Source: Flavobacterium sp. (lineage in GTDB: Bacteria > Bacteroidota > Bacteroidia > Flavobacteriales > Flavobacteriaceae). From it: a DNA stretch of 64,000 nucleotides. The notes below the pieces were generated by a model that had not been told where the DNA came from, did no database searches, and saw only the letters and a program-made list of their open reading frames with translations. Made by a program: the position numbers and the translations under genes. Of the stretch, positions 14,433 to 63,388 are shown one piece after another (the first letter of the stretch is position 1; each line of letters starts with the position of its first letter). Where the stretch lies: assembly GCF_013823965.1 (NCBI RefSeq), contig NZ_PNNA01000005.1, forward strand, positions 5,419 through 69,418, read 5' to 3'.

Positions 14433-14440
14433 AAAAAATC

Positions 14441-15580: not shown

Positions 15581-15638
15581 TTTTTTATTTTTTTATTTTA
15601 AGATTCGAGTGTAAACTGAAATCCCAAACTTGAAACAA

Positions 15639-18424: not shown

Positions 18425-18485
18425 TTTGTTTGTTTTTGTGGAGTTTGTAAAGCTCCGATTTCATTTTATTTGAATTGTGTGTTGT

Positions 18486-20730: not shown

Positions 20731-20811
20731 TCTAAAAAGTTTTTTACAAATTTACTATAATTTTCTTACCAGCGAGCCAGTTCGTGAGTCAGTTTCCAGT
20801 TTTTTGTGGTC

Positions 20812-20844
20812 AAAAAAAATCCGACATGTATTGCGATGTCGGAT
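20812..20844 (-). terminator. rho-independent terminator of fahA
   Basis: Stem atccgacat/atgtcggat. On the minus strand an 8-nt T run follows. Confidence 0.75.
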
Positions 20845-20854
20845 TTTAAAAGAT

Positions 20855-27154: not shown

Positions 27155-28333
27155 ATGAAAAAAAATAAATATTTGATTGTCTTGGCCGGAATGATCATGC
27201 AGCTGTCAATCGGGTCTATTTACGCCTATAGTAAATGGATTGAACCCTTGTCGAAAGAATTGAATTGGGATGCCCACGACACCAAAACAGGCTTTAGTTT
27301 GGCCATTTGCTTTTTGGGCTTGACGGCGGCTTTTATGGGTAAATTTGCCCAAAAAGTAGGACCAACCAAAGCAGGATTATTGGCCGCCCTGTTTTTAACG
27401 GTGGGATTATTGGGTGGTGCTTTGGCCGTCAACATAGGTTCCATTTTCTTGTTTTACTGGACATTTGGCGTTTTGCAGGGAATTGGTTTGGGATTTGGAT
27501 ACGTGGTTCCGGTTTACACCGTAGTGAAATGGTTTCCGGATCGTCCGGGATTTGCTTCGGGAATCATCATCATGTCCTTTGCTTTGGGCTCGTTGTTGGC
27601 TTCTTTCTTGATTAGTCCATTAATTGCTTCCGCGGGATTGTCCGGTGCATTTGCCGTCTTGGGAATTGCCTACGGAATTTGCATGTTGTTGAGCGCCTTG
27701 TATTTGGCAAATCCTGCAACAGCCGAAACAAAACACCATGCCCATGTTGATTTGACTCCAAAAGAAATCATTACCGACAAACGTTTTATAGCTCTTTGGT
27801 TGTTATTGTTTTTGAACGTATGTGGCGGTATCGCCATTATTTCGAAAGCGGCCGTTTTGGGACAAGAAGTGGTAGGAATGAGTGCGGCACAATCTACCTT
27901 GTTTGTGGCCATCATTGGATTGTTCAACGGAATCGGGCGTTTGTTCTGGTCCAGTATTTCGGATAAAATAGGTTGTTGGACCACTTTTATGGTTTTTATT
28001 GGGGTAAATGCAATTTGTTTTGCCTTGATTCCCAGTTTTTCAACCAATAATACCTCTTTCCAAATCTTGACTTATGTCATCATTGCGGGTTATGGCGCCG
28101 GTTTTGCCACGATGCCTTCTTTCGTGAAAAGCATTTTTGGAACAGAAAATTACGGACAAGTATTGGGTTACACCTTGACGGCTTGGTCGGCTGCGGCCTT
28201 TGTTGGTCCATTGTTGTTGGGATTGAGCACGGAAATCACTATTTTCTACTTGTTTGCCATATTGTTGGCAGTTGCCTTGATTGTTGGATTTTGGTTGAAA
28301 GGATTATTGTCAAAACCCTTGGTTGTGGCATAG
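27155..28333 (+). CDS. MFS transporter, oxalate/formate antiporter (OFA)-like
   Basis: 392 aa with about 12 hydrophobic segments. The N-terminus YAYSKWIEPL...GFSLAICFLGL is typical of OFA-family MFS. Lies immediately downstream of pflA. Confidence 0.75.
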   Translation: MKKNKYLIVLAGMIMQLSIGSIYAYSKWIEPLSKELNWDAHDTKTGFSLAICFLGLTAAFMGKFAQKVGPTKAGLLAALFLTVGLLGGALAVNIGSIFLFYWTFGVLQGIGLGFGYVVPVYTVVKWFPDRPGFASGIIIMSFALGSLLASFLISPLIASAGLSGAFAVLGIAYGICMLLSALYLANPATAETKHHAHVDLTPKEIITDKRFIALWLLLFLNVCGGIAIISKAAVLGQEVVGMSAAQSTLFVAIIGLFNGIGRLFWSSISDKIGCWTTFMVFIGVNAICFALIPSFSTNNTSFQILTYVIIAGYGAGFATMPSFVKSIFGTENYGQVLGYTLTAWSAAAFVGPLLLGLSTEITIFYLFAILLAVALIVGFWLKGLLSKPLVVA

Positions 28334-49677: not shown

Positions 49678-49808
49678 CGAAAATACTTGAAATACTATGC
49701 TTCTAATTGACTAATTTGAATATAATAGCTTAATTTTAAATCGAAATAGTTCGCGTACAAATGTTGCCAAGCCTCACAAATAGGCAAGAAAACAGAAAAA
49801 AAATAATT

Positions 49809-50789
49809 ATGTTGAAAGATAATTTTGGGAGAACACACGAATACCTTCGGATTTCGCTTACCGATGTTTGCAATTTCAGGTGCCAATATTGCATTCCGGA
49901 CGAGAAAACCTCTTTTATGCCTTCTTCCAGGTTGATGACGGTCGATGAAATTGATACTATCGCCCGAGAATTTGTAAAATTGGGAGTCCAAAAAATACGT
50001 TTGACCGGTGGAGAACCTTTGGTTAGAAAAGATGTTGCCCAAATTTTATGGGCACTTTCGAAATATCCAATAGAACTCACTTTAACCACAAACGGTTTGC
50101 GAACCAATGAATTTATTGACGTTTTTAAAAAAACTGGAATAAAATCCATCAATATTAGCTTGGACACACTCGATAAAGACCAATTTTTCAGCATTACCAA
50201 ACGCAATGTTTTTGATAAAGTTTGGAACAACATCCAGCAACTTATCGACGAAGGTTTTCACGTAAAAATAAATACGGTCGTGATGCGTGATTTTAATGAT
50301 GCTGAAATTCTCGATTTTATCGAATGGACAAAAAAACACCCCGTTCACGTGAGATTTATTGAGTTTATGCCTTTTGATAAAAACCAATGGAACACACAGA
50401 AAGTGTTTAGTTATCAGGAAATTATGGATAAGGCTGCAACAAAATACAGTTTTATCCGAATGAAAGACGGTATGAATGAAACTGCCAAAAAATTCAAACC
50501 CTTTGGCCACGAAGGTACTTTTGCCGTTATCAGTACGATGAGCGCACCGTTTTGCGGGAATTGTAACCGAATGAGACTCACCGCCGATGGTAAAATGAAA
50601 AATTGTTTGTTTTCTAAAGGCGAAGCCGATATTTTGTCTGCATTACGAAATTCAGAAAATATTGTGCCAATAATAAAACAATGTGTGGCCAGTAAAGCAG
50701 AAGCCTTGGGCGGACAATTTGAAGGCGATTACACCAAAATTGATACCACCAAAATTACCAACAGAAGTATGATCAACATAGGCGGATAA
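49809..50789 (+). CDS. moaA: GTP 3',8-cyclase (radical SAM)
   Basis: The ATG at 49809 gives the family-typical start MLKDNFGRTHEYLRISLTDVCNFRCQYC (CX3CX2C). The second cluster, CGNCNRMRLTADG, is also present. Confidence 0.93.
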   Translation: MLKDNFGRTHEYLRISLTDVCNFRCQYCIPDEKTSFMPSSRLMTVDEIDTIAREFVKLGVQKIRLTGGEPLVRKDVAQILWALSKYPIELTLTTNGLRTNEFIDVFKKTGIKSINISLDTLDKDQFFSITKRNVFDKVWNNIQQLIDEGFHVKINTVVMRDFNDAEILDFIEWTKKHPVHVRFIEFMPFDKNQWNTQKVFSYQEIMDKAATKYSFIRMKDGMNETAKKFKPFGHEGTFAVISTMSAPFCGNCNRMRLTADGKMKNCLFSKGEADILSALRNSENIVPIIKQCVASKAEALGGQFEGDYTKIDTTKITNRSMINIGG

Positions 50790-50836
50790 CCCTTTTTTTT
50801 GAACATCGTTATTCCTTTTTTGGCATATCGAAAAAA

Positions 50837-52021
50837 ATGATGCAAATGATAAATGTAAAAGACGCAAAACAGCTAATTGATGAAAATTGCTGTTCTCAAA
50901 AAGTGAAAATGGTAACCTTGCTGGAAGCCAATGGAAGCATTTTGGCACAACCTGTTCATGCAGTCATGGACACGCCGCCTTTTGACCAATCGGCGATGGA
51001 TGGCTATGCTTTTTCCTATGAAAATTGGGATAAAAAAAGCCATTTAAAGGTAATTGGCGAAATACAAACGGGTAATTATTCTACTGAAAATGTGCTTGCC
51101 AATGAAGCGGTTAGGATTTTTACGGGAGCGCCCATTCCGCCCGGAACTGATACGGTTGTGATGCAGGAAAAAATCAGTCGGAACGAAAATGAGATTCAAA
51201 TTCTAGATACTTTTTTGATCAAAGGAGCCAATGTTCGACCGCAAGGTTCACAAACCAAAAAGGGAGAATTAGCGCTGCAAGAAGGACAATTATTGTCACC
51301 GGTTGCGATTTCTTTTTTAGCCGGAATAGGCATCAGTAAAGTGAAAGTTTTTTCGAAACCGACTGTCAGCATTATTGTAACGGGGAAAGAACTAGTTAAA
51401 TCCGATGACACGATTACCGATGGAAAAATTTTCGAATCCAACTCCATTGGTTTAATTGCGGCATTGCAACAATTAGATATAAATCCAGTTTCGGTTGAAG
51501 TGGTTGATGATGTCGAAGCAGAAATTGAAAAAGCCATTTCGAATCAATTGACTTCCGATATTCTCATTCTTACAGGCGGTGTTTCGGTGGGCGATTATGA
51601 TTTGGTTCCCGCTTCTTTGGAGCAATGTGGGGTTCAAAAAATATTCCATAAAATCAAACAAAAACCAGGAAAGCCCTTTTATTTTGGGCGTTTCAACCAA
51701 ACCTTGGTATTTGCTTTACCCGGAAATCCTGCGGCGGTCATGAGTTGTTTTTATGAATATGTGGCCCAGGCCATCGGTCATTTTACTAAGAAAGAGTATT
51801 TTAAAAAAAGAGCGTTTCCATTGGCCGAAGATTTTAATAAAAAAGCGGGACTTACTTATTTTCTAAAAGGAAAAATGGGTGAGAAAGCCGTGACGGTTTT
51901 GAACAATCAAGAGAGTTACAAGCTGAATTCTTTTGCCGTGGCAGATTGTTTGGTTGAATTTGATGAAGAGGGCGAGAATTTCAAAAAAGGAGATTTGGTC
52001 AATGTTAGAATGATTTTATAA
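50837..52021 (+). CDS. moeA: molybdopterin molybdenumtransferase
   Basis: 394 aa with FDQSAMDGYA and LPGNPAAV motifs. Confidence 0.92.
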   Translation: MMQMINVKDAKQLIDENCCSQKVKMVTLLEANGSILAQPVHAVMDTPPFDQSAMDGYAFSYENWDKKSHLKVIGEIQTGNYSTENVLANEAVRIFTGAPIPPGTDTVVMQEKISRNENEIQILDTFLIKGANVRPQGSQTKKGELALQEGQLLSPVAISFLAGIGISKVKVFSKPTVSIIVTGKELVKSDDTITDGKIFESNSIGLIAALQQLDINPVSVEVVDDVEAEIEKAISNQLTSDILILTGGVSVGDYDLVPASLEQCGVQKIFHKIKQKPGKPFYFGRFNQTLVFALPGNPAAVMSCFYEYVAQAIGHFTKKEYFKKRAFPLAEDFNKKAGLTYFLKGKMGEKAVTVLNNQESYKLNSFAVADCLVEFDEEGENFKKGDLVNVRMIL

Positions 52022-52043
52022 AGCTTTTTTAAACTAAAAAACG

Positions 52044-52376
52044 ATGAAAAATTTAATAATCAAAGGACATCTTTCGATAGAAAACAGCAAGGGACATTTG
52101 ATGGGAATGGGCAAAAAAGAATTGCTCGAAAGAATCAGGGAAACAGGTTCTATCAGTGCTGCTGCCAAAGAAATGCAAATTTCCTACCGACACGCTTGGG
52201 AGATGATAAAAAAAATCAATTCCATTTCAGACAAACCCATTGTCATAAAAAACACGGGAGGTTCCAGTGGTGGTGGCTCCATCGTTACAAAAGAAGGGGA
52301 GGAGTTGATTGCCTGCTACATCAAATTGAATGCTGCTTTTGAGGAATTTAAAGAACAAATCTGTAAAACAATTTGA
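52044..52376 (+). CDS. ModE N-terminal-like winged-helix regulator (no Mop/TOBE domains)
   Basis: 110 aa. LLERIRETGSISAAAKEMQISYRHAWEMIKKIN...GGSSGGGSIVTKEGEEL matches the ModE/LysR-type HTH N-domain. Confidence 0.7.
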   Translation: MKNLIIKGHLSIENSKGHLMGMGKKELLERIRETGSISAAAKEMQISYRHAWEMIKKINSISDKPIVIKNTGGSSGGGSIVTKEGEELIACYIKLNAAFEEFKEQICKTI

Positions 52377-52379
52377 TAT

Positions 52380-53111
52380 ATGTACCAAGAGATTTTGTTT
52401 TACGTGTTGTTGGCATTGGTCGCTTTTCTCTATTCTTCCGTGGGACATGGCGGAGCAAGCGGATATTTGGCCTTGATGGCCTTCTTTTCATTTGCGCCGG
52501 AAACAATGCGTCCTACGGCTTTGTTGATCAATATTTTTGTTTCTTTAATCGCTTTTGTTCAATATTATCGTGGTGGTTTTTTTAAATGGAATTTGTTTTG
52601 GCCCTTTGCGCTAGCTTCTTTTCCGGCGGCATTTGTCGGGGGAATGATAAGTGTTGATGTTGGTTTGTATAAAAAAATACTGGCGGTACTTTTGCTGTTT
52701 TCAGTGGCAAGATTATTGGGGATCAAATTCAAAAGGGCAACATTCGATGTAAAGCAAAACCTCTACCTCGCACTTTTGATTGGAGCCATCATCGGATTGT
52801 TTTCAGGAATGATGGGAATAGGTGGCGGCATTATTTTGAGTCCCATAATTTTACTCATGCATTGGGCAGACATGAAAAAAACAGCCGCAGTTTCGGCCTT
52901 GTTCATTTTTGTTAATTCAATTGCCGGTTTTGCCGGTCTTTTTGCCAAAGGTTTCGAATTTAAAACTGAAATGGGAGTAATGATAGTCCTTGCTTTAATG
53001 GGTGGAATTGCAGGTTCTTATTATGGTGCCAATAAATTTAAAAATGATTTTTTGAATAAAATATTGGCTCTAGTCTTGATTATTGCATCCATAAAACTAA
53101 TTGTTGCCTGA
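52380..53111 (+). CDS. TauE/SafE (DUF81) family anion permease
   Basis: 243 aa with about 7-8 TM segments and internal duplication with GxGGG motifs (VGHGGASG, MGIGGGII). Confidence 0.85.
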   Translation: MYQEILFYVLLALVAFLYSSVGHGGASGYLALMAFFSFAPETMRPTALLINIFVSLIAFVQYYRGGFFKWNLFWPFALASFPAAFVGGMISVDVGLYKKILAVLLLFSVARLLGIKFKRATFDVKQNLYLALLIGAIIGLFSGMMGIGGGIILSPIILLMHWADMKKTAAVSALFIFVNSIAGFAGLFAKGFEFKTEMGVMIVLALMGGIAGSYYGANKFKNDFLNKILALVLIIASIKLIVA

Positions 53112-53113
53112 CG

Positions 53114-53935
53114 ATGGATACTCAAACGAAACCTATGAACGCCTATATTCTTGCAGGTGGAAAAAGCTCCAGAATGGGCACTGATAAAGGCTTGACTCTC
53201 TTTGAAGGAAAAGCCATGATCCTGCATGTCATCGAACAATTGCAAGCTGTTTTCAATAAATTGGTTATTGTTTCCAATAATCCCGAATATGAAAAATTTG
53301 GATTGGAAGTGATTCCTGATTTGATAAAAGATATTGGTCCCGCTGGTGGAATTTACACCGCTTTGAAGCATTCGAAATCCAAATTGAATTTTATGGTGAG
53401 TTGTGACATGCCTTTTATTACCAAAGAAGCAATTGAATTTACTGTAAAAAATGTTGATAAAAACCAAATCGTTTTATTGGAAAATCAAGGAAAATTAGAA
53501 CCCTTGTTTGGAATATATTCTAAAGATTGCGAAGCCGTTTGGTTGGAACTCATTCATCAAAATACCGTTAAATTACAGAAAATGGTTGCGTGCTTCGAGT
53601 TAAAAATCATTCCTGTTGAAAACAATGAAATTTTTAACGCGTCTTTTTTCAAAAACATCAATACAAAAGAGGACTTTGACAACGCTTCAAACAAATTTAA
53701 AATGGAAATAAACATACTTGCCTTTGGACAAATTACCGATATAACGGGTAAATCAGCATGGAAAATGACTGGAATAAAAGACACGGACGAGTTGGTGAAA
53801 AACTTGCACGAACAATTTCCCGCATTGTCCAGAACTCGCTATTCTATTGCCGTAAACAAAAAATTGGTACAAGAAAACAAGGTATTTACCGAGAATGACA
53901 CAATAGCTTTACTTCCACCATTTTCTGGCGGATAA
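53114..53935 (+). CDS. mobA: molybdenum cofactor guanylyltransferase MobA fused in frame to a MoaD-like sulfur-carrier domain
   Basis: N-terminal roughly 195 aa carries ILAGGKSSRMG (MobA). The C-terminal 77 aa (from the in-frame ATG at 53702, MEINILAFGQI...) ends in the ubiquitin-like LLPPFSGG-stop. No stop codon separates the two parts. Confidence 0.8.
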   Translation: MDTQTKPMNAYILAGGKSSRMGTDKGLTLFEGKAMILHVIEQLQAVFNKLVIVSNNPEYEKFGLEVIPDLIKDIGPAGGIYTALKHSKSKLNFMVSCDMPFITKEAIEFTVKNVDKNQIVLLENQGKLEPLFGIYSKDCEAVWLELIHQNTVKLQKMVACFELKIIPVENNEIFNASFFKNINTKEDFDNASNKFKMEINILAFGQITDITGKSAWKMTGIKDTDELVKNLHEQFPALSRTRYSIAVNKKLVQENKVFTENDTIALLPPFSGG

Positions 53936-53946
53936 AATAATATAAT

Positions 53947-55065
53947 ATGGATTCAAATAGATACAGGTACCAAAGACAAGTGCAACTCAAGGAAATTGGG
54001 GCAGTTGGCCAGGACAAAATTCGAAAAGCAAAAGTGTTGGTTATTGGCGCAGGCGGTTTAGGTTGTCCTGCCTTGCAATACCTTGCTGCTGCAGGAGTGG
54101 GGACGATTGGCATTGTCGATTTTGATGTGGTTGAAATTTCAAATCTGCAACGTCAAATACTGTATACCGTGGATGATTTAGGTCAATCAAAAGCAATCAC
54201 GGCTGCCAAAAGGATGGAAGCGCTAAACCCGGAAATTACAATCCAATCCCATAATTTTCAATTGACCAATAAGAATGCGCTCGAGATTCTGGAAAATTAC
54301 GATATTGTTATCGATGGTTCCGATAATTTTGCCACGCGATACCTCATTAATGACGCGTGCATGTTGCTTGATAAACCATTAATTTATGGCGCTGTTTTGC
54401 GTTTTGAAGGACAAATTGGCGTTTTCAATTTAGAAGACACAGAAACTCGTGTTAAAACCAATTATCGGGATTTATTTCCAAAACCACCCGATTCGACATC
54501 CGCAATTTCCTGTAATGACGTGGGTGTTTTGGGAGTAATTCCAGGAATTATTGGAACGATGCAAGCCACGGAAGCACTCAAAATCATTACTGGTGTTGGC
54601 AAACCATTGACAAATAAAATAATTTCATGCAACGCCCTGGAAAACACCTTTCATAATTTTGAAATTGTTCCAAGCACTAATCAATCCTTCGATTTTCCGA
54701 AAAGCAAAATGGCTTTTTTAGACTTCAATTACGATTGGATGTGCACCCCAAATGTGAATTTTGACATGCTTTCTGTCGAAGAATTTGATATTCTCAGAAT
54801 AAACGAAAAAATCACCATTGTTGATGTGCGTGAAAAAGGGGAACTTCCCTTAGTGGAGGAATTTCCCGTTGTATTGATTCCATTGAGTGAATTTGAAAAT
54901 TTGGTTTCGACCATTTCCCAGGAGTACAAAATAATATTTTTTTGCAAATCGGGTCAACGCAGCCTAAAAGCCTTAAAATTATTCAAAGAAAAATTCCCTG
55001 ATTGTCAAGCTTACAGTTTAACTGGAGGCATCGAATATTGGAAAAATAACAAGTATAAAATATAA
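53947..55065 (+). CDS. moeB: molybdopterin-synthase adenylyltransferase/sulfurtransferase (MoeB/MoeZ type with rhodanese domain)
   Basis: 372 aa with E1-like loop VIGAGGLGCP and a C-terminal rhodanese active-site loop FFCKSGQRS. Confidence 0.9.
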   Translation: MDSNRYRYQRQVQLKEIGAVGQDKIRKAKVLVIGAGGLGCPALQYLAAAGVGTIGIVDFDVVEISNLQRQILYTVDDLGQSKAITAAKRMEALNPEITIQSHNFQLTNKNALEILENYDIVIDGSDNFATRYLINDACMLLDKPLIYGAVLRFEGQIGVFNLEDTETRVKTNYRDLFPKPPDSTSAISCNDVGVLGVIPGIIGTMQATEALKIITGVGKPLTNKIISCNALENTFHNFEIVPSTNQSFDFPKSKMAFLDFNYDWMCTPNVNFDMLSVEEFDILRINEKITIVDVREKGELPLVEEFPVVLIPLSEFENLVSTISQEYKIIFFCKSGQRSLKALKLFKEKFPDCQAYSLTGGIEYWKNNKYKI

Positions 55066-55071
55066 CTACTC

Positions 55072-55518
55072 ATGAAGGAGAAAAAAAAGCACAATGTGTT
55101 TGTCAATGGGCCTATAACGCCTGATTTTATTGCCAACAGCATTGCCAAACACAGCTCAAAAACAGACATTGGAGCACACGACATCTTTTTGGGACAAGTC
55201 CGAAGCGACATAATTGATAAAAAAACAGTGGTGGCCATCAACTATGAAGCCTATCAAGAAATGGCGGATGATCTTTTTTACGAGATACGCGAAGCCGCGT
55301 TTTCAAAATACAATTTAGTGTGCATGCACATTTATCACAGCCTTGGAGTGGTAAAAACGGGTGAAATTTGCCTCTTTGTATTTGTGTCATCCAAACACCG
55401 CAAAGAAGCTTTTGATGCCTGTAAAGACATTGTGGAACAAATAAAAGCGATGACACCAGTTTGGGGCAAAGAAATTTTTGAAGATGATTCGTATGTCTGG
55501 AAGGAGAATCAATCTTGA
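55072..55518 (+). CDS. moaE: molybdopterin synthase catalytic subunit
   Basis: 148 aa with a MoaE fold pattern (...VGEICLFVFVSSKHRKEAF...PVWGKE). Confidence 0.88.
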   Translation: MKEKKKHNVFVNGPITPDFIANSIAKHSSKTDIGAHDIFLGQVRSDIIDKKTVVAINYEAYQEMADDLFYEIREAAFSKYNLVCMHIYHSLGVVKTGEICLFVFVSSKHRKEAFDACKDIVEQIKAMTPVWGKEIFEDDSYVWKENQS

Positions 55519-55575
55519 AACCCCAACGTTTAAAACCGTTGGCTATAAAATAATTAATATTTAAATTACAAAATA

Positions 55576-56487
55576 ATGGTCGATATAACATTCAAATCGA
55601 ATACCCTTCGCGTCGCAAATGCGCAAGCCATAGTAAAAGTCAGTAAAAAAGAGACAATCGATGCCATTGTAAACAAAACGGTTCCCAAAGGAGATGTTTT
55701 CGAAATGGCCAAAACTGCAGGACTCTTTGCCGTAAAACGCACCAGTGACATGATTCCGGATTGTCATCCAATTCCAGTTGAATTTACGGCCGTGAGTTAT
55801 GATATAAAGGAGTTGGAAATTACCATAGGAGTGGAAGTGCATACCATTTATAAAACAGGAGTGGAAGTGGAGGCGATGCACGGCGCATCAGTGGTTGCGC
55901 TTACCATGTATGACATGTTGAAGCCTATCGACAAAGAAATCGAAATTCATTCCATCAAATTGTTGGAAAAAAAAGGGGGCAAATCTGATTTTACGGATAA
56001 ATTTCGCACGGATTTAAAAGCTGCCGTAATTGTTTGTTCGGACAGTATTTCGGCTGGAAAGAAATTCGACAGAGCTGGAAAGGCCATAATCCAAAAATTA
56101 GAATTTTGCAAAGTGGGCATCACCGATTATTCCATCATTCCTGACGATATTGTAGGAATTCAAGAAAAAGTTTTGGACTTGCATGCACAAAACATAGACC
56201 TTGTTATACTGACCGGAGGCACAGGGCTTTCGCCAAGGGACAACTCACCCGAAGCGATAAAACCTCTTTTGGACAGGGAAATACCTGGAATTATGGAAGC
56301 GGCACGCCATTATGGCCAAGATCGCACACCGTTCTCAATGTTATCACGCGGAATCGCCGGAATGAAAGGCAAAACACTTATCATGACATTACCGGGTTCT
56401 ACCAAAGGAGCACAGGAATCCATGGACGCATTATTTCCTTCTCTTTTACACATTTTTAGGGTTGTTGAGGGGAAACAACACGATTAA
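55576..56487 (+). CDS. moaC: bifunctional MoaC (cyclic pyranopterin monophosphate synthase) / MoaB-MogA domain protein
   Basis: 303 aa. The N-terminal half is MoaC-like (MIPDCHPI...VEAMHGASV). The C-terminal half carries the MogA/MoaB motif [10 protein letters not shown]. Confidence 0.92.
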
Positions 56488-56699
56488 AAAATAGTTAGTT
56501 TTTTTATATAATTATTCTTTCAAACTTAATTTTTTGTTCTTTTTTCGTGAGTATAAAATAGGATAAAAACATCTTTTTTACACTGATTTTTGTTAAAAAA
56601 ATAGATTTTAAAAAGGTTTTTACAAATAAAACTAGATTTTATATGTTTTTTAGTTGAATTTTAATGAATTCTTAGATTTATCGCTAATTTTTAAAAATA

Positions 56700-56711
56700 T
56701 GATAATTGTCA
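56700..56711. promoter_or_regulatory. TGATAATTGTCA box upstream of the hexaheme cytochrome gene (candidate Crp/Fnr-family site)
   Basis: TGAT-N4-GTCA, centre about 110 nt upstream of the ATG at 56815. It shares 10 of 12 positions with the box at 59564-59575. Confidence 0.3.
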
Positions 56712-56814
56712 GTTAAATTTTTTAGTTCATTTTATAAATTTAACATCATAAGAATAAGTTAAAATATAGTTAAAAAAAACCAAATACAAATCAAATAAAT
56801 TAAACAAAAAAATT

Positions 56815-57888
56815 ATGAAAACAGTCAAACAAATTATGTTAGTTGTTTTAGGACTTCTTTTTTTCGCCTTGCAGGGATGTTCTCACGACGACTATATTCC
56901 TGTTCCAGGTCCAGCTGGTGCTGATGGCACAAATGGCACAAATGGTATTAACGGAACTACAGAATGTGCTACTTGTCACTCTAAAGCACATACAGACCCA
57001 GTTAATATTTCTTATGCTTTGTCTGTTCATGCTATTGAAACGTTACATGAAACTACAAATGCAAGTGGCGCCACAATTACTCTAAAGACTTCAGAATACA
57101 CTAACAGAACTGGTTGTACCCAGTGTCATACCAGTCAAGGTTATATTGACAAATTGAATGGTGATGTTCAAAAAACGGGAACAGGAACTGCGTTAGGTTT
57201 TCCTGCTTATCCTGGAGGCAAACAAGCAATCTCTTGTACAACTTGCCACAATAAACATTCTAGTTTTGATTTTAAAAATGATGGTAATGATTATGCCCTT
57301 AGACAAGGTTTTACACCAGTTGCTTTAGATACAGACCCAACCTACAAAATGGATATGGGTACAAGTAATACCTGTGTTAACTGTCACCAATCAAGAAGTT
57401 TGCCTCCAACATCAGGAGACGTAAAATTAAGTAGTCGTTTTGGTCCTCACCATGGTCCACAATCTTCATTATTAGAAGGTATTCAAGGAGCTTTAATTGT
57501 TGGAACTACTCCTTATCCAGCTCCAAAATCTGCTAAACATAGATCAGGTGCTTCTTGTGTGACTTGTCACATGGGTAAAACTTCTGACGGTAAAAACGGT
57601 GCGCACACTTGGCATCCAACTCCAAATGCTTGTACTACTTGTCATACAGGAGGTGCGCCAGCTGCTGTTGCTGGTTTTGCAGCTGACATGGCAACATTAC
57701 AAGGTTTATTGGTAGCAAAAGGAGCTTACAATGCTACCACAAAAGCTTTCACTACAAATACTGTTCCTATTAAAGTTGCCCAAGCTGCTTGGAATTATGC
57801 CATGTTGCTGGAAGATAGAAGTAATGGAGTTCATAATCCAACTTATGCAAAAGCCTTGTTGAAAAACTCAATCGAAGCTTTACAATAA
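56815..57888 (+). CDS. hexaheme c-type cytochrome lipoprotein
   Basis: 357 aa with a signal peptide and Cys (FALQGC). Six CxxCH motifs: CATCH, CTQCH, CTTCH, CVNCH, CVTCH, CTTCH. Six Gly-X-Y triplets (GPAGADGTNGTNGINGTT) follow directly after the lipidation site. Confidence 0.85.
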   Translation: MKTVKQIMLVVLGLLFFALQGCSHDDYIPVPGPAGADGTNGTNGINGTTECATCHSKAHTDPVNISYALSVHAIETLHETTNASGATITLKTSEYTNRTGCTQCHTSQGYIDKLNGDVQKTGTGTALGFPAYPGGKQAISCTTCHNKHSSFDFKNDGNDYALRQGFTPVALDTDPTYKMDMGTSNTCVNCHQSRSLPPTSGDVKLSSRFGPHHGPQSSLLEGIQGALIVGTTPYPAPKSAKHRSGASCVTCHMGKTSDGKNGAHTWHPTPNACTTCHTGGAPAAVAGFAADMATLQGLLVAKGAYNATTKAFTTNTVPIKVAQAAWNYAMLLEDRSNGVHNPTYAKALLKNSIEALQ

Positions 57889-58078
57889 AATTATAAAATC
57901 AACACCTCTGGAACTTTGTCCAGGGGTTGTTGATTTGAAAAACTAATTATCCTGAACACTTTAATTTGGTGCGGTATTCTTTAGTAATTCAGCGATTGCT
58001 TACGGAATTTTAAATCTTTTGACAATGAAAATTGTTGAATGACTATTTACGGCAATTATTCAATTTAAAAATAAAAAG

Positions 58079-58462
58079 ATGAAAAAAATAATTCAATATT
58101 TAATGATGCTAATGGTGAGTTTGATGGCAACATCTTGTTACTATGACGAAATGCCGCCAGAAGCCGTCATCCCGATTCCAGAAACGGTTTCTTACTCAAA
58201 AGATGTCCAGCCTTTGTGGAATCAAGATTGTATCAGTTGTCATAAGCCAGGCGCAACGGCACCTGATTTGACTACGGCAAATTCTTACAGTGCATTAGTG
58301 ACAAACAATAAATATGTTATTCCGGGAAATGCTGTTGGTAGTAAACTACACAAATCTCTTGTTGCCGATGGCGTATCTCTAATGCCAACCACCGAAAAAT
58401 GGAGTGATTCAAAAATTGCTTTGGTAGACAAATGGATTACTGATGGTGCCCTTAATAACTAA
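58079..58462 (+). CDS. small monoheme c-type cytochrome lipoprotein
   Basis: 127 aa with lipobox MATSC and a single CISCH motif. Confidence 0.7.
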   Translation: MKKIIQYLMMLMVSLMATSCYYDEMPPEAVIPIPETVSYSKDVQPLWNQDCISCHKPGATAPDLTTANSYSALVTNNKYVIPGNAVGSKLHKSLVADGVSLMPTTEKWSDSKIALVDKWITDGALNN

Positions 58463-58478
58463 CTATAAATAGAAAGTC

Positions 58479-59342
58479 ATGAAATTATATAAAAAAATAT
58501 TTATAGCCGTGTTTGCTTTTCCAATGGTGTTATTGGCACAGGAACAAAAAGATACTATTGCTGCCGTTGAGGAAGACAGTATTGCACCAGTGGTAGAAGT
58601 AGAATTGGAGCGTGCCGCTTTTGAAAGCACTTCATTAATAGAAAATCAAACGAATAGGGTTTACTCCAAAGGAACCATAGAAATGATCATGAATCACCGT
58701 TTTGGCGTTGTCAGCGGAACCAATGACTTGATTGGGATTTGGGCACCGTCCAATATTCGTATAGCGGTAAATTACTCCATCACGGATCGTATTACTGTTG
58801 GTTTTGGAACTACAAAGGACAATAGATTGCAGGATTTTAGTCTTAAAGTTGCTTTATTGAGGCAAACGGTTAATGGAAAAATGCCTGTGAGTGTCACTTA
58901 TTATGGAAATGCCAGCATCAATGCAATGCCCAAAGAGAATTTCTATCACACCTCTGACCGTCATTCTTTTTTTAACCAAATCATTATTGCAAAACGATTC
59001 TGCAAAGCATTTTCATTACAACTAGCACCAAGTTATTCTCATTACAACGTTGTTGACGCTCCAATGAGTAATGATTTGTTTGCCGTTGAATTAGGCGGTC
59101 GTCTAAAAGTGGCTTCAGATATTTCCATCCTTTTTGATGTGAATCAGCCTTTTACTTCACAAGAAATTGCTCCTAAATCTGGTATTTCCATTGGAACCGA
59201 GTTTTCAACTGTTGGGCATTCCTTCCAGATTTTTGTGAGTAATTATCGAGGAATCATAAATCAACAAAACAACATGTTCAATCAAAATGATTTTTTCGAA
59301 GGCGATTTTGCCATTGGATTTAACATTTCCAGAACCTGGTAA
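58479..59342 (+). CDS. outer-membrane beta-barrel protein (DUF5777-like)
   Basis: 287 aa with a signal peptide (VLLAQE), alternating hydrophobic beta-strand pattern and a C-terminal aromatic end ...GFNISRTW. Confidence 0.65.
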   Translation: MKLYKKIFIAVFAFPMVLLAQEQKDTIAAVEEDSIAPVVEVELERAAFESTSLIENQTNRVYSKGTIEMIMNHRFGVVSGTNDLIGIWAPSNIRIAVNYSITDRITVGFGTTKDNRLQDFSLKVALLRQTVNGKMPVSVTYYGNASINAMPKENFYHTSDRHSFFNQIIIAKRFCKAFSLQLAPSYSHYNVVDAPMSNDLFAVELGGRLKVASDISILFDVNQPFTSQEIAPKSGISIGTEFSTVGHSFQIFVSNYRGIINQQNNMFNQNDFFEGDFAIGFNISRTW

Positions 59343-59355
59343 TATTTTAAAAAGC

Positions 59356-59384
59356 CATTTGTGTAAAAAACTACAAATGTTTTT
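59356..59384 (+). terminator. rho-independent terminator after the barrel gene
   Basis: Stem catttgt/acaaatg followed by Ts. Confidence 0.7.
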
Positions 59385-59406
59385 CCAATAAATTTAAATT
59401 AGAAGA

Positions 59407-59451
59407 AGAGGATTCTCGTTCCAATTAGTATGAGTTTATCCTCTTTTTTTT
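59407..59451 (+). terminator. second tandem terminator
   Basis: Stem agaggat/atcctct followed by a 7-8 nt T run. Confidence 0.7.
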
Positions 59452-59562
59452 GGATAGGGAAAACAAAGAAGTCTTTTTGAAATCATTGGTCGTAAAGCCT
59501 TGATTTAATTGGGATTGAACTGTGTGAAAATAGAAAAATTAGGGTTAAAATAATTTTTAAGT

Positions 59563-59576
59563 ATGATAAATATCAT
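59563..59576. promoter_or_regulatory. ATGAT-aaat-ATCAT palindrome upstream of the NrfC-like gene (candidate Crp/Fnr-family site)
   Basis: TGAT-N4-ATCA core, centre about 112 nt upstream of the ATG at 59682. Confidence 0.35.
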
Positions 59577-59681
59577 TGAAATTTAGCCACAAAATTCTGA
59601 AATTTACAAGGCAATTAAGCCAACTTATTTTAAATAAGTGTAATGCATTTTGTGATTAATTTCTAAAAGCAATATAACAAT

Positions 59682-60617
59682 ATGGAAAAAGAAAATAACA
59701 ATTCAAGCCGCCGTAATTTCCTAAGGCTAGGTGCTTTGGGAGGGATAGCCTTGGCAGGAACTGCAATTGCTAAAGCAGTTACTGATGAAAGTCCAAAAAC
59801 TACTGGCAAAAAAGTCAAAGTTCTTACTGCTGATGGAAAATTAATAGAAATAGACAGTTCTCACGTTGATCACCATGCCTCAAATGACGGCTTCTCCAGT
59901 GAAGAAGTGCGACAAGGTGTTGAAGGTAAGAAATTTATAAGGGTTATTGATTTGGCCAAATGTGCCAACGAAAGAAAATGCATAACAGGATGTCAAAAAG
60001 CACATAATATTTTGGCTCCCATCGAGTATATCAAGGTAAAGAAAATGCAGGATTCAGAGCTTGCGGCTCCTTATTGGTTTCCTACAATGTGCTACCATTG
60101 CGACAATCCTCCATGCGTAAAAGTATGTCCGGTTGACGCCACCTTTAAACGTTCTGACGGAATAGTTGCCATGGATTACGATCGATGCATTGGTTGCAAA
60201 TTCTGTATGGCAGCTTGTCCATATTCTGCCCGTACGTTCAACTTTGGAAGACCCGAACAATTAAAATTTACCGAAGAGCATAAAAACGATACTTCAGATC
60301 CAAACCACTGTACAACTCCTTATGCACAAGAAGGAACTGTTGCAAAATGTGATTTCTGTACGGATCGTTCTGCAAAAGGATTATTGCCTGCATGTGTTGT
60401 CGAATGTCCAAATGGCGCCATATATCACGGTGACGAACTTGAAGACGTGGTTAGTAATGGTGAAGAAACCCTTAGATTGAAAAAACTATTGCAAGACAGG
60501 GCTGGATATCGTCAATTTGAAGAATTGGGAACTAAACCCCGCGTCTATTATTTGCCGCCTGTAGAACGTGATTTCCCGTTTGAAGATGCAGCCGAAGCAC
60601 AAAACACAAAAGAATAA
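59682..60617 (+). CDS. Tat-exported 4Fe-4S ferredoxin-type subunit (NrfC/PsrB/ActB2-like)
   Basis: 311 aa with twin-arginine signal SRRNFLRLG. Cys clusters: C-x5-C-x3-C, CYHCDNPPCVKVCP, CIGCKFCMAACP and CDFC...CVVECP. Confidence 0.88.
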   Translation: MEKENNNSSRRNFLRLGALGGIALAGTAIAKAVTDESPKTTGKKVKVLTADGKLIEIDSSHVDHHASNDGFSSEEVRQGVEGKKFIRVIDLAKCANERKCITGCQKAHNILAPIEYIKVKKMQDSELAAPYWFPTMCYHCDNPPCVKVCPVDATFKRSDGIVAMDYDRCIGCKFCMAACPYSARTFNFGRPEQLKFTEEHKNDTSDPNHCTTPYAQEGTVAKCDFCTDRSAKGLLPACVVECPNGAIYHGDELEDVVSNGEETLRLKKLLQDRAGYRQFEELGTKPRVYYLPPVERDFPFEDAAEAQNTKE

Positions 60618-60636
60618 TCTTTAAAACAGTAAAATT

Positions 60637-62016
60637 ATGTCTGAAGATATAAATATCACGGAATCTACCAATAAACACGAGACCTTTACCCAAGAAGAGT
60701 ATATGGTCATGAAAAATGACCTGCTCCGTCCCATCGAAAAAATTGGAAAAGCCGGTAAAATATGGATTGCATTCCTCATAACCGTTTTCTTGGCCGGAAT
60801 TTTTGCTTATTACATACAAGAAACAAGAGGAAAATATACAACTATTAGCCTAAGAGATTATACAATGTGGGGAATTTACATTTCCAACTTTTTGTTTATG
60901 GTTGCCATAGGTTTAGTGGGTGTGTTGATGTCGGCCATACTGAAACTCACCCATTTTGAATGGTACCGGCCTCTTTCCAGAATAGCAGAAGTTATCGCCA
61001 TTGGCGCCATAATGTTTGCCGGAATAAGCATCGTTGTAGCTATGGGGCGACCTGACAGGCTGTATAATTTGCTTTTGCACGGACGTATTCAATCCCCGAT
61101 TGTATGGGATGTTATCGGAATTTCGACTGATTTGGCAGCCAGTCTTATTTTACTTTTTATTCCGCTAATTCCTTCATTGATAACGTGTAGGAACAATTTG
61201 AAAAACTTGCCAAAATGGCAATTGAAAATGTACAATTTTCTTTCCTTTGGATGGCAAGGAACGCCGGAACAATGGAAAATATTGAAAAAAACAATGAGGA
61301 TTTTGACCATCTTGCTAATTCCTCTGGGTATTTTAATTTGTACCATTACGGCATGGTTATTTGCCACGACCCTCAGACCGGAATGGGACAGTACTAATTT
61401 TGGTGCCTATTTTGTTTCAAATGCCTTTTTGTTGAGTGTGGCCGTAATGACTTTATCCACTTTTATTTTTAGAAATGCATACAACTTGGAAAAATACTTG
61501 ACCGAACTGCATTTTGATAAATTGGGCAAAGCAATGGTATTAATGGCTTTAATTCACGGTTATTTCAACATAAACGAATACTTGATTCCAGCTTATAAAA
61601 TGTCCGGCTTGCATCAAAATCATCTCTTGAACTTATTCGTGGGCAAAGATGCTTTGTTTTATTGGTCTGTGGTGATTTTTGGAATTATAGTTCCTTTTTT
61701 GTTGCCATTGTTTCCCAAATTGCGAAAACCAATTCCTCTGACCATAATTTCGGTTATCGTATTGATAGCGGGTTGGTTTAGACTTTATTTAGTGGTTATT
61801 CCAGGATTATTGCAACCTTATCTTCCTATACAGGATGTTCCTGAATCGTGGACACATTACTTCCCAAGTTTGGTCGAAATGACTATCGTGGCAGCAACTT
61901 TTGCCGGTGTATTATTGATAGTGACCTTGTTCTCGAGGTTTTTCCCAATCGTTTCTGTTTGGGAAGTAGCCGAAGGCCAATTGGAAGGAAAAGAAGAAAT
62001 AATTAACTATAAATAA
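60637..62016 (+). CDS. NrfD/PsrC-family integral-membrane quinone-interacting subunit (long, ActC/HmcC-like form)
   Basis: 459 aa with about 10 hydrophobic segments by eye. Family-typical stretch GRPDRLYNLLLHGRIQSPIVWDV. Confidence 0.88.
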   Translation: MSEDINITESTNKHETFTQEEYMVMKNDLLRPIEKIGKAGKIWIAFLITVFLAGIFAYYIQETRGKYTTISLRDYTMWGIYISNFLFMVAIGLVGVLMSAILKLTHFEWYRPLSRIAEVIAIGAIMFAGISIVVAMGRPDRLYNLLLHGRIQSPIVWDVIGISTDLAASLILLFIPLIPSLITCRNNLKNLPKWQLKMYNFLSFGWQGTPEQWKILKKTMRILTILLIPLGILICTITAWLFATTLRPEWDSTNFGAYFVSNAFLLSVAVMTLSTFIFRNAYNLEKYLTELHFDKLGKAMVLMALIHGYFNINEYLIPAYKMSGLHQNHLLNLFVGKDALFYWSVVIFGIIVPFLLPLFPKLRKPIPLTIISVIVLIAGWFRLYLVVIPGLLQPYLPIQDVPESWTHYFPSLVEMTIVAATFAGVLLIVTLFSRFFPIVSVWEVAEGQLEGKEEIINYK

Positions 62017-62023
62017 TTCCCAG

Positions 62024-62575
62024 ATGGAAAAGTACAACTATTTTATAGCCACCTGCATGATGATTTTGTTCTCCTTGACAACTTCTAATGCCCAAGATAA
62101 AGAAGCCAAAATCACCTTGACTTTTGAAAAAGCGGATTCACTCTATGTGTGTAAAGCTTTGGTAACTTCTGATGGAATTCCGGTAAGCGAAGTACCCGTA
62201 AATTTATCAGTGAAACGCTTGTTTAGTAACCTCCCAATAGGTGATCCTGTGGCAACAGATTCCATTGGCGTGGCCACTTTTGAAGTGCCACAAGATATTC
62301 CTTCACGTAATGGAAAATTAATTATATTTGCTAATATAGTTGATGATGAGAACTATATGAACACTGAAACTAGCGGAACAGTCAATTGGGGTATGGTTGT
62401 TGTTAGTGATAACTCAAATATAGAAGACCGTTCCATTTCCGCAGGAAGAGATAAAGCTCCCATTTATTTTATAACGGCATCTCTTTTGATTATTTTCTTG
62501 ATATGGGGAACTTTATTTTATGCAGTATTGCAAGTATTTAAGATAAAACGATTAGGCAAAGCAAACATCGAATAA
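62024..62575 (+). CDS. hypothetical exported protein with C-terminal membrane anchor
   Basis: 183 aa with a signal peptide (SNAQD), a roughly 110-aa beta-rich domain and a C-terminal TM segment (IYFITASLLIIFLIWGTLFYAVL). No cofactor motif. Confidence 0.5.
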   Translation: MEKYNYFIATCMMILFSLTTSNAQDKEAKITLTFEKADSLYVCKALVTSDGIPVSEVPVNLSVKRLFSNLPIGDPVATDSIGVATFEVPQDIPSRNGKLIIFANIVDDENYMNTETSGTVNWGMVVVSDNSNIEDRSISAGRDKAPIYFITASLLIIFLIWGTLFYAVLQVFKIKRLGKANIE

Positions 62576-62606
62576 CAATTTAAAAACAACAATTAAAATT
62601 AAAACT

Positions 62607-63020
62607 ATGAAAAACATGAAAAAAATCCTTTTTGGGCTAGCTGTTTTGGCTGCCTTTACATTCACTCAAACTACTAATGCACAAGCAAAACCAAAAGGAA
62701 AAGAATGGAAAACTCCTGCGGCTGACGCCAAAAAGAAAAGTCCCATAAATTTGAGTGATGCTTCTGCCATTAGTGCAGGAAAATCACTTTGGGGAACCAA
62801 TTGCAAGTCTTGTCACGGTGTGAAAGGTCTTGGAGATGGAACAAAAGCGGAAAAAATTGATATTTCTTGCGGTGATTTCTCTTCAAAAGAATTTCAATCA
62901 TCTTCTGATGGAGATATGTTTTACAAAACAAAAATTGGTAGAAAACCAATGCCTTCTTACAAAGAAAAACTGAGCGATTCAGAAATTTGGCAATTAGTGG
63001 CCTACATGAGAACGATGTAA
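62607..63020 (+). CDS. monoheme class-I c-type cytochrome
   Basis: 137 aa with a signal peptide, CKSCH and a distal Met context GRKPMPSY. Confidence 0.85.
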   Translation: MKNMKKILFGLAVLAAFTFTQTTNAQAKPKGKEWKTPAADAKKKSPINLSDASAISAGKSLWGTNCKSCHGVKGLGDGTKAEKIDISCGDFSSKEFQSSSDGDMFYKTKIGRKPMPSYKEKLSDSEIWQLVAYMRTM

Positions 63021-63331: not shown

Positions 63332-63366
63332 ATAAAAAAAATCCTGTTAGCCTTGACCAACAGGAT
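63332..63366 (-). terminator. rho-independent terminator of the DUF2911 gene
   Basis: Stem atcctgtt/aacaggat. On the minus strand a long T run follows. Confidence 0.75.
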
Positions 63367-63388
63367 TCATTTTATAATTTTGGAGTTC

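Follow-up and report, generated by a model that had tools for sequence, protein, structure and literature searches.

The stretch analysed here (the window) is 64 kb of Flavobacterium sp. DNA, namely positions 5,419 to 69,418 of contig NZ_PNNA01000005.1 in RefSeq assembly GCF_013823965.1. It carries a cluster of seven co-oriented genes on the plus strand, g1 to g7 (56815-63020; Table 1), which an earlier reading of this DNA (hereafter the original prediction) had described as a self-contained quinol:cytochrome electron-transfer system without a catalytic subunit. The open reading frame (ORF) listing bears out the number, orientation and extent of these genes, and the encoded proteins fall into the classes that had been proposed: a hexaheme lipoprotein with six CxxCH motifs (g1), a lipoprotein with a single such motif (g2), an outer-membrane beta-barrel, which proved to be a full-length DUF5777 member and was modelled as a barrel (g3), an NrfC-like iron-sulfur protein with a twin-arginine (Tat) signal and four cysteine groups (g4), an NrfD-family subunit for which about ten transmembrane (TM) segments had been predicted and nine to ten hydrophobic segments were counted (g5), an anchored protein of no known family (g6) and a monoheme cytochrome c of class I (g7). 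Taking all evidence together, we consider it an even call whether this cluster is a low-oxygen-induced respiratory side-branch that leads from menaquinol to a terminal cytochrome.

Table 1. Positions of the genes, of the putative control elements and of further features discussed in the text; entries without a locus label refer to the window.
Feature	Position	Strand	Description
g1	56815-57888	+	357-aa six-heme c-type cytochrome lipoprotein; lipobox Cys22 (ALQG-C22)
g2	58079-58462	+	127-aa monoheme c-type cytochrome lipoprotein; lipobox Cys20 (ATS-C20); CISCH at 51
g3	58479-59342	+	DUF5777 outer-membrane beta-barrel; E = 2.9e-73
g4	59682-60617	+	311-aa predicted Tat-exported NrfC/DsrO/ActB2-like iron-sulfur protein; Fer4_11
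g5	60637-62016	+	NrfD-family integral membrane subunit, ActC type; E = 2.5e-25
g6	62024-62575	+	183-aa accessory membrane protein; signal peptide and single C-terminal TM segment
g7	62607-63020	+	secreted monoheme class I cytochrome c; CKSCH at 66
Hairpin directly 3' of g1 stop codon	57896-57936	+	-23.3 kcal/mol, z = -5.7
Hairpin followed by U8 tract, 3' of g3	59401-59452	+	-17.7 kcal/mol, z = -3.2; intrinsic-terminator-like
T-run hairpin right of g7	63339-63368	-	
Putative CRP/FNR-type operator upstream of g1	56699-56712	+	ATGATAATTGTCAG; core TGAT-N4-GTCA at 56700-56711
Bacteroidetes -7-like element, g1	56735-56742	+	TAAATTTA; 22 nt after g1 operator
Second operator copy, upstream of g4	59563-59576	+	ATGATAAATATCAT; sole exact 14-mer match in the window
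-7-like element, g4	59599-59606	+	GAAATTTA; 22 nt after g4 operator
Pyruvate formate-lyase gene	24001-26250		
Radical-SAM activase gene	26349-27125		
MFS transporter gene	27155-28333		
SSF transporter gene	47681-49402		
Molybdenum cofactor operon	49761-56487		
mobA-moaD fusion	53114-53935		one 273-aa ORF
EB_dh lipoprotein genes (examples)	L050:11705-12955, L009:11297-12565, L012:7108-8367, L016:2333-3568, L017:6775-8007		
hemA directly after g7 (example)	L030:16442-17665		
90-aa Tat ORF (example)	L062:12466-12744		
Variant g1 of close relatives	L085:8047-9420, L087:8094-9422, L088:8075-9421 and 11328-12656		

The seven genes are not one operon, because terminator-like hairpins follow both g1 and g3. 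The first is a candidate terminator or RNA-stabilising element, and the second separates g2-g3 from g4-g7. On its right side, the cluster had been said to be bounded by a terminator and a convergent DUF2911 gene. The gene is indeed found downstream; the terminator did not hold up, as the T-run hairpin lies on the minus strand and the plus-strand candidate right of g7 was no better than shuffled sequence.

Pattern-scanning of one genome per species yielded 599 matching stretches, at least 587 of which encode a relative of g1, and our locus comparisons use the 80 best of these loci (labelled L001 etc.), with the close relatives L085, L087 and L088 compared in addition. All 80 loci belong to Flavobacteriales; they represent about 20 genera, among them Lutibacter, Muriicola, Robiginitalea, Eudoraea, Yeosuana, Ulvibacterium, Maribacter and Seonamhaeicola, and many stem from sediment metagenomes. 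Synteny was scored by tblastn with all window proteins in the 59 loci that extend at least 7.5 kb beyond g1. All seven genes occur in order in 53 of these and at least six in 58, an arrangement that is far from chance. The heme counts are similarly constant, with six hemes in 74/79 homologs of g1 and a single one in every homolog of g2 (74/74) and g7 (70/70). The sole locus of the 59 with g1-g3 alone is L067 (L067:510-1688, 12987-15641), where no NrfCD core lies within 8.5 kb of the triad, a phage-type integrase gene is found upstream, and an H-NOX (heme-NO-binding) protein and a PAS/GAF histidine kinase are encoded 6 kb downstream.

The cluster is made of two modules, a core (g4-g7) and a terminal triad (g1-g3). 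Complete tandem triads precede a single core in L088 (8075-14102) and L046 (10001-15104), and in L012 (8447-12484) an extra monoheme-barrel pair stands before the full triad, again with a single core. The core quartet, for its part, comes in at least three NrfD lineages (about 34-45% identity between lineages), any of which can follow the triad; many loci have two adjacent cores of different lineages, and core-like quartets also exist as extra copies without a triad of their own. Exchange reaches down to single genes. In L085, L087 and L088 the genes flanking g1 are 70-93% identical to those of the window, and mature g1 is a six-heme variant of 442-457 aa with 34% identity and insertions of about 100 aa, its signal peptide and lipobox being identical to those of window g1. 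This looks like cassette-type allele replacement.

Putative operators of the CRP/FNR type precede both g1 and g4, each with a -7-like element at the same distance. Within the window, the operator core has 8 matches against 5.1 expected, which is not significant; the evidence for it is therefore comparative. The core of the palindrome, aTGAY-N4-RTCAt, occurs within 250 bp upstream of g1 in 67/76 loci, mostly 74-85 bp before the start codon, at a density of 3.7 hits per kb, with about 0.8 hits per kb (estimated from the same counts) in other intergenic DNA. It recurs in 28/90 upstream regions of nrfC (the g4 gene), is essentially absent upstream of g2, g3, g5 and g7, and is further found upstream of some neighbouring genes described below (five of nine genes for an EB_dh lipoprotein, hemA in four loci and a small Tat ORF in three). 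Alignment of 49 promoters on the box gave a common layout of box, 22 nt and TAnTTTTA, the last of which resembles what we take to be the -7 promoter element of Bacteroidetes. From this geometry, the box centre would lie near -41.5 relative to the predicted start, that is, at the class II position of CRP/FNR regulators. The layout of class II promoters is matched in that a 5-4-5 palindrome near the predicted -41.5 replaces the upstream promoter element. FNR/DNR sites (TTGAT-N4-ATCAA) have the same geometry (PMC1274295). We rejected this classical FNR consensus as the motif itself, since it is only weakly enriched and the conserved palindrome has A/T-swapped flanks.

A second palindrome, tGTAAC-N4-GTTACa, is present in 14 g1 promoters (L006, L008, L009, L017, L033, L043, L050 and others) and in five nrfC promoters (L006, L008, L055, L062 and L070), and absent from the window and its closest relatives. 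Its start lies 20 bp after that of the first box in most of these g1 promoters and 20 bp before it in the five nrfC promoters. The motif is identical to the one predicted for HcpR2, a CRP/FNR-family regulator responsive to nitric oxide and nitrite (PMC1274295). The window besides holds genes for a pyruvate formate-lyase, its radical-SAM activase and, next in line, an MFS transporter; the first two point to a fermentative, facultatively anaerobic lifestyle. Because of the FNR-type operator, the GTAAC box in relatives and the pyruvate formate-lyase genes together, the cluster is probably expressed under oxygen limitation.

The regulatory picture also bears on whether triad and core belong together at all. 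It is conceivable that g4-g7 feeds aerobic oxidases, with g1-g3 serving, for instance, heme or iron handling at the outer membrane, and a split into three transcription units by the hairpins, the lone triad of L067 and the quartets lacking a triad of their own would all agree with such independence. However, adjacency and order are kept in 58 of the 59 loci despite the exchange of core lineages and the duplication of triads, and the same operator stands at the same distance before g1 and before nrfC, so that we regard unrelated modules as highly improbable.

Within the core, g4 has the twin-arginine motif SRRNFLRLG and 16 cysteines in four cluster-binding groups. Its PDB matches include ArrB (3e-27), PsrB (5e-24) and the C-terminal iron-sulfur part of ActB (2e-18), with the last alignment covering residues 773-945 of the 949-aa ActB, i.e. 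the Fer4 domains alone. The best NCBIfam model was DsrO, at 179 bits below its cut-off of 200, and the equivalog models likewise stayed below theirs (NrfC 103 < 378; QrcC 102 < 400; DsrP 87 < 350). The g5 protein aligns over residues 22-444 with ActC of Flavobacterium johnsoniae (6btm_C; E = 2.2e-45), and its PDB matches at E < 0.01 are chains of alternative complex III (ACIII) alone, namely four ActC chains and, weakly, ActF; it presumably holds the menaquinol site. For g7, cytochromes c552 matched best (5e-17) and ActE more distantly (4.7e-6), and the protein also resembles cytochromes of the cbb3-CcoP type.

The g6 protein has a signal peptide, a beta-sandwich-like domain and a C-terminal TM helix, which is the conserved part of its family. 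The periplasmic part is longer in relatives (median length 291 aa vs 183), as would be expected if the beta-sandwich-like domain were present there in additional copies, and no Cys, His or Met is conserved among them. Searches of the PDB (at E < 1, ActD chains included), Pfam and NCBIfam returned no match for g6. A role as ActD was rejected, given the lack of detectable similarity and a different topology. The gene order had been noted to echo actB2-C-D-E; this comparison is thus sustained for g5, g7 and g4 and fails for g6. As judged from these similarities, g4-g7 looks like an ACIII-core-like quinol dehydrogenase that lacks the B1 domain, ActA and ActF. In the literature, NrfCD pairs without a catalytic subunit are already viewed as quinol dehydrogenases that serve multiheme cytochromes of the periplasm (PMC3534657).

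NrfCD-type modules commonly dock onto a catalytic partner, and one way to explain its absence here was that homologous clusters carry a known catalytic gene that has merely been relocated in this genome. For the partner search, the ORFs of the 80 loci (±10 kb) were clustered and the recurrent families annotated. No recurrent catalytic gene was found near the cluster in these 80 loci, neither a molybdopterin enzyme nor NrfA or NosZ, and the scanned ORFs of the window were likewise free of molybdopterin oxidoreductases, NrfA and NosZ. Nor does g1 qualify as orthologous to ActA or to any characterised enzyme: the best match of its profile in the PDB (2e-7) concerns the C-terminal third alone. The central claim of the original prediction, a self-contained quinol:cytochrome system devoid of a catalytic subunit, accordingly stands, and with it the exclusion of relocation.

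Which activity the triad might supply is best approached through g1. Its CxxCH motifs start at residues 51, 101, 141, 187, 248 and 273, and the lack of a CxxCK motif together with the heme number excludes NrfA, as had been anticipated. Residues 46-194, covering hemes 1-4, pass the Pfam domain MtrC/MtrF_II-IV (PF22113; 42.8 bits, cut-off 30), with a weak c554 signal in the same region. A profile of 22 g1 homologs matched NrfA (2e-7), the octaheme nitrite reductase of Trichlorobacter (2e-6; residues 88-344) and OcwA (2.5e-5) in the PDB, and these matches extend across the final two hemes and the C-terminal helices, where the motif S-N-G-V-H-N-P is found. The same profile gave no match to ActA chains at E <= 1, and no NCBIfam model was passed by g1 (nrfB 22-25 bits vs cut-offs of 167-184). 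The AlphaFold model of g1 has a pLDDT of 60 (about 90 in the C-terminal helices); at this quality, Foldseek ranks are at most indicative, with OcwA first (2.6e-4) and OmhA next. On these sequence grounds, g1, with its six hemes, is distantly related to OcwA and NrfA within the OcwA/NrfA/c554 superfamily, with a c554/MtrC-like N-terminal module and an NrfA/OcwA-like C-terminal module of two hemes plus helices.

Six histidines outside the heme motifs are invariant in the g1 family (72, 148, 212, 242, 264 and 340) and His213 is nearly so, His212 and His213 forming a GPHHGPQ motif. In OcwA, His-His motifs lie over two open hemes (PMC6703420); a sub-sequence search comparing GPHHGPQ with these motifs gave no usable alignment. 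Directly after the lipid cysteine, window g1 has six G-X-Y collagen-like triplets (residues 22-47; listed at 56878-56895), and 72/79 homologs have six to nine, mostly G-[V/I/T]-D; one homolog matches the Pfam collagen repeat. We interpret this run as a probable acidic collagen-like stalk or linker.

These features invite the view that g1 is a pruned enzyme of the NrfA or octaheme-reductase (ONR) type with heme 2 as catalytic site, reducing or detoxifying nitrite, nitric oxide or hydroxylamine and fed by the NrfCD-like core as in NrfABCD. The catalytic CIQCK heme of the octaheme nitrite reductase from Trichlorobacter falls on heme 2 of g1 (CTQCH) in the alignment, GPHHGPQ is invariant, OcwA, with its His-His motifs over open hemes, reduces nitrite and hydroxylamine (PMC6703420), and all members of the superfamily show in vitro reductase activity towards nitrite or nitric oxide (PMC9250108). 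The HcpR2-like palindrome in g1 and nrfC promoters and the H-NOX sensor near the triad of L067 would be in keeping with such a function. Yet the catalytic His of NrfA/ONR (FQHPE) finds no counterpart in the g1 alignment, CxxCK is missing, and the six invariant extra histidines could give bis-His ligation to all six hemes. Besides, the GTAAC box is lacking in the window and its closest relatives, no NCBIfam Nrf model was passed, and barrel, lipid anchor and stalk are left unexplained for freely diffusing N-oxides. On balance, we find an N-oxide reductase improbable.

Of the partners of g1 in the triad, g2 is a small monoheme domain of the His/Met type. It faintly resembles PccH, a monoheme cytochrome of Geobacter that reportedly has a role in electron uptake, and the residues from the lipid cysteine of g2 onwards, C-Y-Y-D-E, are conserved across the family. 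The g3 protein matches DUF5777 (PF19089) over positions 1-247 of the 247-position profile (246.6 bits, cut-off 23.1). Modelled from a 45-sequence alignment (pLDDT 79, pTM 0.75), it forms 12 strands around a polar lumen rich in small residues; the N-terminal segment is conserved, and an aromatic residue stands at the C-terminus. In Foldseek searches, this model matched NanC (1.7e-6; TM-score 0.67 to the target), VhGalP (TM-score 0.69), FapF and Tsx. Strand numbers are higher in MtrB-type sheaths (26) and in Cyc2 (16; PMC8406198). Going by the model, the g3 barrel cannot house a cytochrome, and since it models as a small 12-stranded channel, an MtrAB-type cytochrome sheath finds no support. The suggestion that g1 acts as an extracellular conduit together with the barrel, in the MtrAB or porin-cytochrome sense, is hence not upheld. 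A Rosetta-stone argument from cytochrome-barrel fusions was also rejected: the DUF5777 family comprises 1,724 clusters at 50% identity, and among the best 150 of these no such fusion was found, all being stand-alone barrels, with two long sequences explained as a tandem barrel and a probable mis-called start.

Bringing these observations together, the side-branch that we hold at even probability could operate as follows. Menaquinol would be oxidised at ActC-like g5, and electrons would pass through the four iron-sulfur clusters of periplasmic g4 to monoheme g7, with g6 as a non-redox, single-pass accessory subunit. From g7, electrons would travel across the periplasm to g2 and g1, the two lipoproteins at the outer membrane, with g1 acting as terminal reductase of the acceptor. 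The barrel g3 would be a channel letting an acceptor (small or chelated), a product or a shuttle through the outer membrane and may dock g1 and g2, with no cytochrome inside. An activator of the CRP/FNR family, bound at about -41.5, would switch on g1 and the g4-g7 unit, as well as hemA and an extra heme lipoprotein in relatives, in response to what may be a low-oxygen signal. This reading draws its support from the pairing of the triad with at least three NrfD lineages, the maintained gene order and the recurrence of heme genes. Since g3 is proposed to pass the acceptor of, or dock, its own two lipoproteins, it would also make sense of each g1 variant travelling with its own g2 and g3. OcwA, to which g1 is distantly related, is a terminal Fe(III) reductase (PMC6703420).

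Several points weigh against the side-branch as just outlined. The g1 model is too poor for heme coordination or an active site to be read from it. No gene for a CRP/FNR regulator was found among the scanned ORFs of the window, and the operator itself is inferred from conservation. Small anions such as nitrite would not need a dedicated channel. For iron oxidisers, reverse operation of ACIII-type modules has been proposed. Finally, the residues that follow the lipid cysteine, CSHDDY in g1 and CYYDE in g2, fit the signal by which Bacteroidetes export lipoproteins to the cell surface, with two acidic residues at +4/+5 after the lipidated Cys, preceded by one that is polar or basic (PMC5080379), which would place g1 and g2 outside the cell instead of in the periplasm.

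Extracellular electron transfer at the surface would follow if g1, and perhaps g2, were flipped to the outside to reduce Fe(III) or Mn(IV) oxides, humics, electrodes or partner cells, with the barrel carrying a diffusible shuttle or threading and anchoring the Gly-X-Asp linker; it would constitute a third outer-membrane architecture beside MtrAB and Cyc2. The acidic +4/+5 positions of g1, g2 and the EB_dh lipoprotein (C-T-H-[DE]-D), the stalk conserved in most homologs, the match to the Pfam MtrC/MtrF domain and the fact that the nearest structural relatives, OcwA and OmhA, are surface reductases are all in line with this possibility. So are the swapping of mature g1 between close strains at 34% identity within far better conserved surroundings, which is typical of exposed proteins, and the fact that the best barrel matches include the 12-stranded polypeptide transporter FapF. 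On the other hand, a 12-stranded barrel cannot hold a cytochrome, no chain of hemes spans the membrane, fused cytochrome-barrel proteins are missing among the best 150 DUF5777 clusters, and the cluster encodes no decaheme periplasmic partner; how electrons would get across the outer membrane is not explained by this reading. Moreover, most g1 homologs have one acidic residue after the lipid cysteine (C-T-S-D-P-I), as opposed to C-S-H-D-D-Y in the window. We therefore deem surface electron transfer unlikely, albeit deserving of serious attention, and we are slightly more reserved about its boldest version, in which surface lipoprotein cytochromes (g1, g2 and, in some species, the EB_dh heme lipoprotein) would each have a 12-stranded DUF5777 barrel of their own, be driven by a mini-ACIII quinol dehydrogenase and make up a third electron-transfer architecture, peculiar to Flavobacteriaceae and so far unrecognised.

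The opposite direction of flow has to be weighed as well. Here, a donor from outside or from the periplasm, such as Fe(II) or a reduced sulfur or nitrogen compound, would be oxidised via the barrel by a split, Cyc2-like pair of g2 and g3, and electrons would be handed on to g7 and terminal oxidases, or driven uphill through the ACIII-like core to quinone. A monoheme cytochrome beside a small barrel does recall Cyc2, in which Fe2+ must enter the pore (PMC8406198), and members of the OcwA/HAO superfamily can oxidise hydroxylamine (PMC6703420); the likeness of g7 to oxidase-feeding c552 and to CcoP-type cytochromes, and that of g2 to PccH, however weak, tend the same way. But g2 and g3 are separate proteins, g3 has 12 strands and not 16, the triad is almost always tied to the quinol-dehydrogenase core, and the FNR-type site that it has in common with heme synthesis fits oxygen limitation. 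As the hosts are heterotrophic Flavobacteriaceae with no evident need for reverse electron flow, we consider this direction decidedly improbable, and retain the menaquinol-driven side-branch as our working model.

In place of catalytic genes, the partner search returned heme-biosynthesis and housekeeping genes plus small accessory ORFs as recurrent neighbours of the cluster. In 32 loci hemA directly follows g7, and in Lutibacter hemN-like, hemE, hemL and hemB genes flank the cluster (including the downstream regions of L004, L010 and L028). A 253-aa lipoprotein of no assigned function recurs as a neighbour, and in nine loci a lipoprotein of about 415 aa with an EB_dh (PF09459) heme-binding domain is encoded between g1 and g2. 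The latter has a conserved CTVTCH motif, which is CX3CH-like, and an N-terminus that strongly resembles the lipoprotein export signal discussed above. Between the barrel gene and nrfC, 21 loci have a 90-aa ORF that carries a twin-arginine signal of its own. The window lacks this ORF, and the N-terminal extension of its NrfC protein (KVKVLTADGKLIEID; 59682-59960) resembles the ORF (YQTLLKPDGTAVKVK).

To its left, the cluster had been said to abut cofactor-biosynthesis genes. These were indeed found, as a molybdenum cofactor (Moco) operon comprising moaA, moeA, a small HTH gene, tauE, a mobA-moaD fusion, moeB, moaE and moaC-moaB; they turned out to be lineage-specific, accidental neighbours. The operon lies upstream solely in the nearest relatives L001, L002, L085 and L088. 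In L087, an SSF transporter gene like that of the window directly precedes the cluster and the operon is missing, from which we conclude that the adjacency is accidental; a functional link between cluster and operon was rejected for this reason. The presence of MobA implies an enzyme with bis-molybdopterin guanine dinucleotide elsewhere in the genome. Among close relatives, mobA and moaD are two genes in L085 and L088 (195 + 77 aa), and tauE is present in the window and L088 and missing in L085. The wider neighbourhood of these relatives (L085:1-1479, 17908-20864 and L088:1-794) contains, upstream of the Moco operon, a Pyr_redox_2 gene (SQR/FCC-like) together with DsrC-like and DsrE-like genes, and downstream a fused ResB/CcsA cytochrome c biogenesis gene; a further multiheme cytochrome of 598 aa is also encoded.

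In coastal waters and sediments, Flavobacteriaceae count among the chief organisms that break down algal and particulate organic matter, and they are generally taken to be aerobes. If the cluster provides a low-oxygen outlet to metals, humics, N-oxides or a shuttle, models of carbon turnover by these bacteria in hypoxic sediments would change, and a compact, genetically modular quinol-to-cytochrome pathway would join the known systems. Should the third architecture prove true, presumed aerobic polysaccharide degraders would have an oxygen-independent respiratory outlet in sediments. The locus gives the DUF5777 barrel family a first functional context and defines a testable FNR-type regulon in Flavobacteriia. 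A literature search found no paper, within the library that could be searched, that names DUF5777, or this cluster in Flavobacteriaceae, Lutibacter or Bacteroidota.

How, then, does the cluster compare with known systems? The original prediction had set it apart from Nrf, Qrc and ACIII, and our comparison agrees, extending the distinction to Dsr, MtrCAB and Cyc2. ACIII (ActABCDEF; PDB 6BTM, 6F0K) occurs in the same phylum and shares the order of iron-sulfur protein, NrfD, small membrane protein and monoheme cytochrome, with g5 resembling ActC, g4 the iron-sulfur (B2) part of ActB, and g7 ActE. However, the 311-aa g4 has no molybdopterin-like B1 domain (ActB has about 950-1040 aa), pentaheme ActA and the second NrfD-like subunit, ActF, are missing, g6 is unrelated to ActD, and the partners of the core are lipoprotein cytochromes of the outer membrane and a barrel instead of an oxidase. 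DsrOP of DsrMKJOP and the NrfCD pair of Melioribacter likewise combine an iron-sulfur protein with an NrfD-like subunit and transfer electrons from quinol to c-type cytochromes without a molybdopterin subunit, as do Shewanella SirCD and Geobacter Cbc4, further quinol dehydrogenases of the NrfCD type that lack a catalytic subunit. They differ in their partner cytochromes, g6 and g7 being specific to the present cluster, and equivalog cut-offs were not reached. DsrJ, DsrM, DsrK, QrcA and QrcB genes, which would define DsrMKJOP or Qrc, are absent from the cluster, and NrfABCD is set apart by a g1 that is neither pentaheme nor endowed with CxxCK, and by NrfC and NrfB model scores below cut-off.

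At the level of the triad, OcwA of Thermincola potens (6I5B) and OmhA (6QVM) share with g1 the c554/MtrC-like N-terminal part, the NrfA-like C-terminal module of two hemes with its helices and S-x-G-x-H-N-P motif, a conserved His-His pair and CxxCH at the heme that aligns with the catalytic one, whereas g1 has six hemes instead of nine or eleven, is about 20% identical, and is a lipoprotein with a collagen-like linker in a diderm, theirs being cell-wall proteins of a monoderm. MtrCAB and other porin-cytochrome systems, as well as Cyc2, resemble the cluster in that cytochrome genes lie beside that of an outer-membrane barrel, with g1 passing the MtrC/MtrF domain II/IV, and mtrCAB and mtrFED are interchangeable paralogous modules, too. 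Yet the g3 model has 12 strands instead of 26 (MtrCAB) or 16 (Cyc2), no periplasmic decaheme cytochrome is inserted, the cytochromes here are lipoproteins, and g2 and g3 are separate genes with the cytochrome unfused. NanC/KdgM, VhGalP, Tsx and FapF, the best Foldseek matches to g3 (E about 2e-6), have a similar size and a polar lumen; they share 6-12% identity with this DUF5777 protein, which in the loci studied is encoded right after a monoheme lipoprotein gene. By analogy, the cluster would thus work like a known kind of system, namely a quinol dehydrogenase of the NrfCD/ACIII type that feeds multiheme cytochromes without a catalytic subunit. What is new is its constant association with two lipoprotein cytochromes and a 12-stranded DUF5777 barrel of their own, the g6 subunit, and the modular duplication, allele swapping, wide distribution in Flavobacteriaceae and FNR-type regulon that go with it.

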